Assembly (NCBI RefSeq): GCF_030384885.1
Contig: NZ_CP128613.1
Length of the DNA stretch: 64,000 nt
DNA from: Escherichia coli
Lineage (GTDB): Bacteria; Pseudomonadota; Gammaproteobacteria; Enterobacterales; Enterobacteriaceae
Strand: one strand, 5' to 3'
The notes below the pieces were generated by a model that was given only the letters and a program-made list of their open reading frames with translations, was not told the DNA's origin and ran no database searches. A program made the translations under genes and the position numbers. This document shows positions 52,983 through 55,304 of this stretch, in pieces (position 1 is the first letter of the stretch; the number at the start of each line of letters is the position of its first letter).

Positions 52983-54071
52983 TCACGGCAGGCGGTGGCG
53001 AGCTTGATAATAAGCCTGCCAGTGAGCTTCTTTATGTGTAGCGACACGCTGTTCGAAGTAACGGCGCAGACGTGCGCGATCTTCTTCGTTATCTTTGACG
53101 ATGGTTCCGGCAATACAGTCTACCAGGTCGGCAGGCTCCCCAGCGCGATTCGCTAAAAACCAGGCGCGGAAACCCACGGCGTGTGCTACGTTAACGGCTT
53201 CAGCGGTGGACATAATCGCTGTAAGGGTATCCATTGAGGTTTTCTTTTCGCCGTTGGCACGCAGATCGCGGAAGGTGCGGACCAGTAACTCCAGTACCGC
53301 GTCAGGCACTTTATGCGGAATACCGCTATGGGCCAGCAAACGTGCCGAAGCGCTGGCGACAAGCTCCAGCTCCTGGGCGAAATCCATAATCGGAAAGACA
53401 GTTTCAAAATCGAAGCGACGCTTGAGTGCGGCACTCATTTCATTGACGCCGCGATCGCGGGTATTGGCAGTAGCAATAATATTAAAGCCTTCCCGCGCAT
53501 AGAGCTGACTGGCTTCACCAGTGAGTTCCGGCACCGTCATAACCCTGTCAGAAAGCATACCTAACAGACAGTCTTGTACTTCCAGTGGTGTACGCGTTAT
53601 CTCTTCAAAACGGACAATTTTGCCGTCGCGCATTCCCTGGTAGAGCGGGGCAGGGACCAGCGCTTCCGTTGACGGACCATGGTTGATAAGCAGGGCGTAG
53701 TTCCAGCCGTACTTGATTTGATCTTCGGTGGTAGATGCGCCGCCCTGGATGGTTAACCCGGCATCGCCGCTAATAGCGGTTGCCAGTAATTCAGACAGGA
53801 GCGATTTTGCGGTGCCAGGTTCCCCCACCAACATCAAACCGCGCCCGGTAGCGAGAGTGACTAACATGCGTTCGACAGCGGAGGGGCTAATCACGACTTT
53901 ACGGCTAATATTTTGTGCTTCGTCGCCAAGGATAAAAACACGGGCCGCAGGCAAACTTAACTGCCAACCGGGCGGGCAAGGTGCGTGATCATTTTGTTTT
54001 AATTTTGCCAGTTCATCGGCGTATAACACAGCGGCAGGCGGACGCTGCAGATGATTATTCTGCGGTGACAT
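52983..54071 (-). CDS. yehL: MoxR-like AAA+ ATPase
   Basis: Walker A LVGEPGTAKS, Walker B/sensor motifs; start at MSPQNNHL. Confidence 0.85.
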   Translation of the reverse strand: MSPQNNHLQRPPAAVLYADELAKLKQNDHAPCPPGWQLSLPAARVFILGDEAQNISRKVVISPSAVERMLVTLATGRGLMLVGEPGTAKSLLSELLATAISGDAGLTIQGGASTTEDQIKYGWNYALLINHGPSTEALVPAPLYQGMRDGKIVRFEEITRTPLEVQDCLLGMLSDRVMTVPELTGEASQLYAREGFNIIATANTRDRGVNEMSAALKRRFDFETVFPIMDFAQELELVASASARLLAHSGIPHKVPDAVLELLVRTFRDLRANGEKKTSMDTLTAIMSTAEAVNVAHAVGFRAWFLANRAGEPADLVDCIAGTIVKDNEEDRARLRRYFEQRVATHKEAHWQAYYQARHRLP

Positions 54072-54181
54072 ATATTCATCCCTGAAATGTATTAATGAAA
54101 TAAACGATATTTTACGCGCAATAAATGTTTGGCGCATTAGTTGTTTGAGCGGAAAATATCTGGAAAGCAGATCACAGTAAA

Positions 54182-54265
54182 TAAAAAAACCTGCTGGTGA
54201 GGCAGGTTCTTTTATTTACTACTTTCAGGCCTAACACCACGGCCTGTGCAACATCGTGTTCCAAC
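54182..54265 (-). ncRNA. orzO: Antisense antitoxin sRNA (OrzO-like) of type I TA locus
   Basis: Minus-strand promoter TTGCAA-17 nt-TATAAT (-10 at 54272-54277), 5' region complementary to toxin leader (54246-54265 vs 54412-54431, 19/20), hairpin acctgc..gcaggt + U7 terminator at 54182-54207. Confidence 0.7.
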
Positions 54266-54294
54266 GAACGAATTATAACCATCGGTGGACCCCG

Positions 54295-54322
54295 TTGCAA
54301 TTAAGATAATGAGATTTATAAT
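54295..54322 (+). promoter_or_regulatory. Promoter of toxin mRNA (TTGCAA-16 nt-TATAAT), giving ~175-nt 5' leader
   Basis: -35 ttgcaa 54295-54300 (palindromic, shared with divergent sRNA promoter), -10 tataat 54317-54322. Confidence 0.65.
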
Positions 54323-54502
54323 CCTGACTGTTGGGACGTTGCGCCGGATCGAACCCATTTCAAGTCCTGGCTACCGGACGGGTGGTGCCGCAGGTAGTGC
54401 CCTGATCCGGAGTGCAACATCGTGGTCCAACATACGTAAACCAGTATCGACAGGCAGTGTAAGGGTAAGATGCTGGTGTTGCGCTCCTTAATAAGGAGAG
54501 CG

Positions 54503-54592
54503 GATGGACACGCTGACACAAAAGTTAACCGTGCTCATTGCCGTACTGGAGTTATTAGTGGCTCTGTTACGGCTGATTGATTTGTTGAAGTA
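54503..54592 (+). CDS. zorO: Type I toxin, 29-aa hydrophobic peptide (ZorO-like)
   Basis: ORF MDTLTQKLTVLIAVLELLVALLRLIDLLK preceded by strong SD taaggagag; matches my recollection of ZorO from E. coli O157:H7; not in ORF track (too short). Confidence 0.7.
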
Positions 54593-54615
54593 ACGGGCAA
54601 ATTGAAACGCATCTA

Positions 54616-54645
54616 AGGGGGAAAATACCGCTTCCCCCTTTAATA
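54616..54645 (+). terminator. Rho-independent terminator of toxin mRNA
   Basis: agggggaa-aataccgc-ttccccct followed by ttaataaaat. Confidence 0.6.
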
Positions 54646-54792
54646 AAATGATTATTGCTTCCATTAATTCACCCGATAACTTTTTTCTTATTTATTAATT
54701 CATCGATTTTATAATTAACGTACATTTGACCGGGATGTGAGTATTTATGGTGGCTATTGGCGAAAAATATCTGGAAACCAGATCGCGGAAAA

Positions 54793-54874
54793 TAAAAAAA
54801 CCTGCTGGTGAGGCAGGTTCTTTTATTTACTACTTTGACGATAACTTGCTGATTGTGCAACATTTCGTACCAAC
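54793..54874 (-). ncRNA. Second Orz-like sRNA (orphan: no cognate toxin ORF downstream)
   Basis: Intact minus-strand promoter TTGCAA(54904-54909)-17-TATAAT(54881-54886), terminator hairpin 54800-54818 + U-run; seed gtgcaacatttcgtaccaac differs from unit 1. Confidence 0.6.
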
Positions 54875-54986
54875 GAGTAAATTATAACCATATCCACACT
54901 CCATTGCAATTCAGTGAGTGAGATTTATAATCCTGCCCCTTGGGAGGTTGTGCCGGATCGGACCAATTTGAATTATTTAGAGTATA

Positions 54987-55304
54987 TTATTCTATTTCTT
55001 GGTTGAATATGTTCTGTAGTTCACGATTAAAAATGGCTATTACCGTTTCTGGTGATTCACCTCGTAATTTTCGCTCATCAATAAATTCATCTCTTATATA
55101 AATCAACGCATCATTTATTAGCGGGTCGGCATCTTCTCCATCACGTTGATGAAATGTTGGACGTAGCCGGAATCGTTCCTGTCGATAGACGGAACCTGTA
55201 AATAATTCAGAGCATTTATGGATCTCAAGTCTGAAGGAAAACGGATCTTCAGGTACAGGGACTTCATAATCATAAGTAGCGACCAGCTCTTTTTGCACGA
55301 TCAT
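54987..55304 (-). CDS. yehK: Uncharacterized small protein
   Basis: 105 aa in conserved position between yehL and yehI. Confidence 0.75.
   Translation of the reverse strand: MIVQKELVATYDYEVPVPEDPFSFRLEIHKCSELFTGSVYRQERFRLRPTFHQRDGEDADPLINDALIYIRDEFIDERKLRGESPETVIAIFNRELQNIFNQEIE

Follow-up and report, generated by a model that had tools for sequence, protein, structure and literature searches.

A common palindromic -35 hexamer at the divergent zor and orz promoters of Escherichia coli: probably a constitutive pair rather than a switch

The divergent promoters of the toxin gene zor and its antitoxin RNA, Orz, were found to have one plausible -35 hexamer between them, the palindrome TTGCAA, which is positioned to serve both. 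The core of this module is probably two sigma-70 promoters that share their -35 element and act as a compact constitutive pair with an output ratio fixed by sequence, not as a switch, and we put the probability of this reading at roughly 0.75. The DNA analyzed was a 64-kb stretch of E. coli sequence, called the window here. The locus within it is the known zor-orz type I toxin-antitoxin system, which lies between yehL and yehK. This system was discovered in O157:H7 (PMC2887945) and has since been characterized (PMC3919570; PMC5397157). The locus has already been published together with its start sites and hexamers, and the sharing of the -35 is implicit in the published tables. The zor-orz papers and reviews that we searched discuss neither the sharing nor polymerase competition at this locus, and our literature searches gave no usable explicit statement of -35 sharing at divergent promoters.

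The locus and its promoter pair

The full copy of the system, unit 1, has the following parts.

54182 to 54265, minus strand: Orz antitoxin sRNA of unit 1, about 84 nt, with the OrzP-type 5' end GUUGGAACACGAUG (Rfam RF02083)
54272 to 54277, minus strand: orz promoter -10 hexamer TATAAT, plus-strand ATTATA (consensus scan); +1 at 54265, 7 nt downstream
54295 to 54300, both strands: palindromic TTGCAA, the -35 hexamer of both promoters (sequence read and consensus scan)
54317 to 54322, plus strand: zor promoter -10 hexamer TATAAT (consensus scan); +1 at 54330, 8 nt downstream
54330 to 54503, plus strand: zor 5' untranslated leader, 174 nt, starting with GUUGGGACG; the length equals that of the published leader
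54412 to 54431, plus strand: target site of the Orz 5' end, 73-92 nt upstream of the ATG, belonging to direct-repeat family D3 (computed pairing)
54493 to 54498, plus strand: zor ribosome-binding site AAGGAG (sequence)
54504 to 54593, plus strand: zor ORF of 29 aa, MDTLTQKLTVLIAVLELLVALLRLIDLLK, which is ZorO (ORF list); the peptide is the same in the O157:H7 unit adjoining yehK
54616 to 54640, plus strand: likely zor terminator, a GC-rich hairpin followed by TTT (sequence read)

Both flanking genes, yehL and yehK, were confirmed in the RefSeq annotation of matching records, which places the locus in the yehI/yehK-yehL intergenic region. The region is 100% identical to that of E. coli 2013C-4282. 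Neither zor nor orz was annotated in any RefSeq record inspected, though dinQ and dqlB are named, and NCBIfam has no model for ZorO. The Rfam OrzO-P model (RF02083) scored 98.9 bits at 54183-54258 on the minus strand against a gathering score of 60. The predicted fold of the unit-1 Orz has an energy of -27.5 kcal/mol (z = -2.7), and its 3' end is a terminator hairpin (plus-strand 54188-54208) followed by a U-run. Pairing between this RNA and its target involves 19 of 20 possible Watson-Crick pairs (6, one mismatch, then 13), which exceeds the published threshold of at least 15 continuous pairs or at least 17 with one mismatch. The position of the target matches the published one, 72-92 nt upstream of the ATG (Fozo 2010). 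The zor terminator hairpin was not flagged by the terminator scan because its T-run is short.

The locus is the same as that of zorO-orzO and zorP-orzP in the yehK-yehL gap of EDL933 (Fozo 2010; Wen 2014, 2017; Shore 2024). The two have in common a 29-aa toxin, a divergent sRNA of about 85 nt, a 174-nt leader, the pairing site, the hexamers, and the spacings. For the EDL933 genes, it is published that Zor is toxic on overproduction and is rescued by the cognate Orz.

According to the original prediction, the TTGCAA at 54295-54300 lies 17 nt from a minus-strand TATAAT and 16 nt from a plus-strand TATAAT. Direct reading of the sequence and the consensus scan agree on this arrangement in unit 1. 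The complete pattern, ATTATA-17-TTGCAA-16-TATAAT, occurs at 54272-54322 and again at 54881-54931, and these are its only two occurrences in the 64 kb. The promoters for orz and zor each match the consensus at 10 of 12 positions. The proposal that one hexamer can serve both promoters also held up, since no better -35 was found for either: a register shifted by 1 nt has only 3/6 consensus matches and still overlaps the same bases. Among all hexamers, TTGCAA is the only one that reads TTG in its first three positions on both strands. The two -10 hexamers are separated by 39 bp (54277 to 54317).

We compared this layout with chance expectation. Only two of the 25 TTGCAA hexamers in the window are flanked on each side by a -10-like hexamer at a distance of 16-18 nt, while 100 first-order Markov simulations of the window gave an expectation of 0.03 such two-sided layouts per 64 kb. 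Promoter-like sites in general were not above chance in the surrounding 1-kb A/T-rich region, with 4 found compared to 3.0 +/- 1.9 in shuffled sequences.

Published transcript ends bear on the -10 elements as well. Primer extension has mapped both toxin mRNAs and both sRNAs (Fozo 2010). In the published cloning work, oligos EF537 and EF541 place Orz at the +1 of the plasmid promoter, and EF853 and EF875 are 5' deletions of 3 and 6 nt. Read from these oligos, the Orz +1 is the G of GTTGG, 7 nt past TATAAT, at 54265 in unit 1 (set by EF541) and at 54874 in unit 2 (set by EF537, EF853, and EF875). The zorO leader is published as 174 nt (PMC5397157); counted back from 54504, the zor transcript begins at 54330, at the G of GTTGGGACG and 8 nt past the plus-strand TATAAT. 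The start sites at 54265 and 54330 are therefore 65 bp apart. Mapped starts out of register with the named -10 elements were to count against the prediction; the published 5' ends lie 7-8 nt downstream of them and are consistent with it. With starts on opposite strands, each 7-8 nt from its -10, the geometry is that of back-to-back divergent sigma-70 promoters with one common -35. In K-12, where the copy is orz-only and of the OrzP type, the predicted start at 2204402 and the Term-seq 3' end at 2204485 fit an RNA of 84 nt. The Cappable-seq supplements had no entry matching the zor-orz coordinates.

The 3' side of Orz gave two further observations. The Orz terminator hairpins of both units (54182-54212 and 54793-54823) lie between an A-run and a T-run and are terminator-like on the plus strand too. 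Orz is also co-directional with yehL, which starts at 54071. In a published Term-seq table, the 3' end of K-12 Orz is entered as an "upstream ORF -111" element of yehL, which makes read-through into this gene possible.

A second unit without a toxin gene

A second unit lies between unit 1 and yehK, and its parts are listed below.

54793 to 54874, minus strand: Orz sRNA of unit 2 with the OrzO-type 5' end GUUGGUACGAAAUG, an orphan antitoxin (Rfam RF02083)
54881 to 54886, minus strand: orz -10 hexamer TATAAT of unit 2 (consensus scan)
54904 to 54909, both strands: shared TTGCAA of unit 2 (consensus scan)
54926 to 54931, plus strand: orphan zor-type -10 hexamer TATAAT (consensus scan)
54939 to 54974, plus strand: remnant of the zor leader, about 31-36 nt (direct repeat D1 ends at 54972; compared with O157:H7 and K-12)

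The promoter layout was predicted to recur in this unit. The same hexamers are indeed present at 54881-54931, but the unit lacks a toxin gene, which makes its "toxin promoter" an orphan. A deletion has removed the ORF, the terminator, and all of the leader beyond the remnant, and the stop codon of yehK follows at 54987. The antitoxin itself is well recognized, with a score of 90.6 bits for RF02083 at 54794-54867 on the minus strand (gathering score 60). "Orz-only" units were described in 2024. Since unit 2 is of this kind, the strain carries 1.5 copies: unlike EDL933, it has one full unit (OrzP-type sRNA and ZorO peptide) and an OrzO-type orz-only unit. Against the unit-1 target, the unit-2 Orz falls short of the published threshold, with only 15 Watson-Crick pairs and one G-U pair. 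The combination of a full unit with an OrzO-type orphan is rare, as 2 of 5,236 matching E. coli records were at least 99% identical to this arrangement (54100-55000).

Several features of the deletion were observed in passing. Transcription from the orphan zor-type promoter, if it is active, would run into the 3' end of yehK (54987-55304, minus strand) and yield an RNA antisense to that gene. The usual +1 G of this promoter is replaced by C here and by A in K-12. The deletion junction GGATCGGACCAATTTGAATTATTTAGAG (54760-54990) is the same as the K-12 orz-only junction (NC_000913.3 2204290-2204400), and the Orz at this identical junction is OrzO-type here and OrzP-type in K-12. The same junction with different Orz types suggests either that units recombined after a single deletion or that deletion occurred repeatedly at one site.

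Conservation and relatives of the promoter pair

Conservation was assessed with 13 units, 12 of them distinct, from the window, O157:H7, ABU 83972, K-12, a chicken isolate, E. whittamii, and two other Escherichia species. This is a small sample; a scan of the genome collection for the Orz terminator added just three loci from Escherichia species other than E. coli. Between the start sites, none of the 18 hexamer columns varied among the 12 distinct units, compared to 29 of the 46 other columns (Fisher P = 1.3e-6, a value that overstates the independence of the units because they are related sequences). In the spacers, 12 of 17 columns varied on the orz side and 8 of 16 on the zor side, with zero indels among the 12 units. 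Invariant hexamers combined with variable spacers of fixed length are the pattern that would be expected of two working promoters. A larger survey from 2024 gives "-35 (TTGCAA)" as 99.4% for zor and 99.4% for orz over 2,439 full loci (Table 3 of PMC11264685). One hexamer counted under both genes would give just such identical figures.

To judge from sequence, zor-orz is homologous to dinQ-agrAB and to the plasmid system dqlB-agrB, which is new here; databases keep these as separate families. Local alignment of the zor and dinQ leaders (54183-54510 with positions 1283-1645 of the K-12 dinQ-agrAB locus, L012) scored 27.5 compared to 10.2 +/- 1.3 in shuffles (z = 12.9). The leader blocks AAGTCCTGG, GGTGGTGC, and GACAGGCAGTG and a Shine-Dalgarno (SD) hairpin are common to zor, dinQ, and ten plasmid loci. 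The antitoxin promoters of orz, agrA, and agrB are also alike, with TTGCAA, 17 nt, a -10, and then a GTT(G/A)G start, and the plasmid version has TTGCAT. K-12 dinQ differs from zor-orz in having its own LexA-controlled promoter on an insertion of about 37 nt that carries a LexA box. No LexA operator (CTG-N10-CAG motif) was found from 54140 to 54986. Upstream of its insertion, K-12 dinQ retains a disabled relic, TTGCAA-N14-TATAAC, at the zor-type position.

At least 5,000 plasmid records contain relatives annotated as dinQ or dqlB, and ten of these were examined. Five of the ten, from IncX1, Pantoea IncFII, IncL/M, IncN, and IncP plasmids, have the compact layout, with one shared hexamer and predicted starts 64-65 bp apart. 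Their hexamer is the asymmetric ATGCAA; the antitoxin side reads TTGCAT and keeps the TTG, whereas the toxin side, with 3/6 consensus matches, does not. The other five have insertions of 35-60 nt between the promoters, or a contraction. A separate inserted toxin promoter is present in L014, L015, L016, L019, and K-12 dinQ, which are working relatives; this counts against the shared-hexamer reading. The compact module thus looks ancestral and widely kept, yet dispensable. In all, 1,089 plasmid records carry the IncL/M core, and from the size of many of those listed, about 63-64 kb, we infer that they are of the pOXA-48 plasmid type. DqlB-AgrB of pOXA-48 was recently shown to be an addiction module.

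An argument against shared use is that the orz promoter might by itself account for the conservation of TTGCAA, and a consensus -10 can work with a poor -35. The hexamer would then serve only the antitoxin promoter, the zor promoter would be -35-independent and driven by its consensus -10, and the palindrome would be incidental. The asymmetry of the plasmid hexamer, which reads well only toward the antitoxin, favors this explanation, and so does the use of TTGCAA-17-(-10) by agrA and agrB with no toxin promoter opposite at a working distance. However, the 16-nt length of the zor spacer is kept in 12/12 units even though 8 of its 16 columns vary, and a toxin-side spacing of 16-17 nt is kept in the five diverged plasmid relatives. 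The zor promoter also lacks an extended -10 TG motif, and K-12 dinQ, with its spacing down to 14 nt and its -10 reduced to TATAAC, has a new promoter downstream. These points argue for use of the hexamer in both directions, and we consider an antitoxin-only role quite improbable.

The first 5-7 transcribed bases were seen to be the same in the antitoxin and the toxin mRNA of each locus and to co-vary across loci: GTTGG/GTTGG, GTTGGTT/GTTGGTT, GTTAG/GTTAG, and GTCAAT/GTCAAT (54260-54335; L013 483-558; L017 479-554; L020 485-559; L022 478-553). Pairing of both 5' ends with one and the same site inside the leader probably accounts for this. These matched starts make a pseudo-palindromic module of about 75 bp around the -35, and similarity further along the arms was not significant. 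An origin by inverted duplication around the -35 was considered and rejected for zor-orz, where the local similarity of the transcribed 5' ends was not significant (z = 0.9). Comparison of the 75-nt arms gave z = -1.1, and the semi-global alignment was degenerate. The same 5'-end test gave a modest similarity in plasmid members (z = 2.3-3.5). Since the match within a locus is limited to the first 5-7 transcribed bases, we do not claim a duplication.

One plasmid relative, the IncX4 locus L016, has a 28-bp palindrome, CTAAATGTGGTTAAGGAACCACATTTAG, inserted between the antitoxin -35 and the toxin promoter at about 567-594. This insert may act as an operator or form a hairpin, and the locus adjoins a gene of the H-NS family.

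Working of the promoter pair

In the proposed mechanism, the leftward promoter would produce the Orz RNA of about 84 nt and the rightward promoter the zor mRNA, with the Orz pairing site within its 174-nt leader, and both would read the same 6 bp, TTGCAA, as their -35. In the sigma-70 holoenzyme, which spans about -55 to +20 of a promoter, region 4 of sigma binds the -35 hexamer. Calculated on that basis, the two polymerase footprints, 54245-54320 and 54275-54350, overlap by about 46 bp. Since the same 6 bp would have to accommodate region 4 of two sigma subunits, one polymerase would be bound at a time. Mutually exclusive binding of polymerase is plausible from this contact and from the overlap of the footprints.

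With the promoters sharing their -35 as a constitutive pair, the ratio of the two outputs would be fixed by sequence. In unit 1, it would probably favor the antitoxin because the orz promoter has the optimal 17-nt spacer, compared to 16 nt for zor, and because 19 of 22 bases are A/T in its upstream flank, compared to 10 of 22 on the zor side. This asymmetry is weaker in unit 2 (16/22 and 14/22). A mutation in the -35 would be expected to weaken both promoters together. Control of the toxin would stay post-transcriptional, through leader structure, 5' processing, Orz pairing, and RNase III, and the documented control of ZorO is indeed of this kind.

The original prediction went further and suggested a possible built-in switch between toxin and antitoxin transcription. 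We found no support for this in the promoter region, where the spacers are hypervariable and neither a LexA box nor a site for a regulator able to tip the balance was found; the post-transcriptional control of ZorO points the same way. A switch could in principle arise by competition, with occupancy of the shared hexamer so high that firing of one promoter blocks the other. Transcription of the two genes would then be anticorrelated, and a change in one, such as a stationary-phase fall in Orz, would release the other. The geometry, which makes simultaneous binding implausible, would allow for this, and occupancy could be substantial since both promoters are near consensus (10/12). Orz levels do fall in stationary phase (Fozo 2010). 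A 2025 review, in which the regulation of zor-orz is described as yet to be elucidated, mentions interference between the promoters of type I systems as no more than a general possibility. An experimental comparison comes from promoters that share a -10, where competition was seen only after strong activation or up-mutations, and 5/5 of those tested showed no competition at basal activity (PMC12825309). In addition, relatives with separated promoters remain type I toxin-antitoxin systems. Taken with the lack of a regulator site, these results make a competitive mechanism unlikely.

Another possible explanation is that the promoters stimulate each other, with the negative supercoils left behind a departing polymerase activating the neighboring promoter so that the two genes are co-activated. 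Such coupling is known at the back-to-back ilvY-ilvC promoters and has been discussed for divergent promoters 64 bp apart (PMC4469952). It requires that both promoters cycle, and a shared -35 limits cycling; the same source notes that competition can mask coupling at overlapping promoters (PMC4469952). We therefore regard mutual stimulation as very unlikely. The palindrome might instead be an operator for a dimeric regulator, as TTGCAA is a perfect 6-bp palindrome and is extended to ATTGCAAT in unit 2. The symmetry stops at 6-8 bp, however, and there is no LexA-type motif. This explanation was rejected as extremely improbable because the flanks are hypervariable and lack symmetry.

The constitutive pair proposed here resembles the bidirectional promoters of Warman and Grainger in its pseudo-symmetric DNA and divergent transcription; in those promoters, one orientation of polymerase excludes the other. 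They differ in that the Warman and Grainger promoters share a -10 and have starts 10, 18, or 23 bp apart, whereas zor-orz shares a -35 and has separate -10 elements. The locus falls outside their definition (a shared or overlapping -10 with starts about 10-23 bp apart), and separate divergent promoters are explicitly not counted as bidirectional by these authors. Sharing of the -35 was also looked for in two other divergent type I systems of E. coli, shoB-ohsC and tisB-istR-1, which are like zor-orz in having a divergent antitoxin sRNA that pairs with a long toxin leader. It was not found in either, as the hexamers are separate. In shoB-ohsC, they are GTGACC and TTGTAA, about 70 bp apart. For tisB-istR, the published promoter table gives no tisB -35, and istR-1 has its own TTGCGC; the consensus scan of this region flagged only the istR-2 promoter (TGGACA/GATACT). 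The lambda promoters PR and PRM are likewise back-to-back divergent sigma-70 promoters with abutting upstream regions and mutual influence. Compared to zor-orz, their starts are 82 bp apart, their -35 elements are distinct, both can be occupied, and they are regulated by CI and Cro.

A stronger claim would be that the shared -35 is a conserved device of the zor/dinQ/dqlB family, at which polymerase chooses toxin or antitoxin at each initiation. This would produce anticorrelated bursts and cell-to-cell variation in the toxin:antitoxin ratio, and a -35 mutation would always hit both genes. We find this improbable.

The locus is known, and what is added here, that the compact layout is kept in distant plasmid relatives, is of modest interest. 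In K-12, the promoter pair exists in a natural form without a toxin. The zor/dinQ/dqlB family extends to addiction modules, probably carried by more than a thousand resistance plasmids. If the promoters do compete, the arrangement would be a simple means at the level of DNA to set, or to add noise to, the toxin:antitoxin ratio. This would matter for ZorO, for which a link to growth in aminoglycosides has been described, and for DqlB-AgrB, the addiction module of carbapenem-resistance plasmids of the pOXA-48 type. The recently described bidirectional promoters that share a -10 would then be joined by a class that shares a -35.
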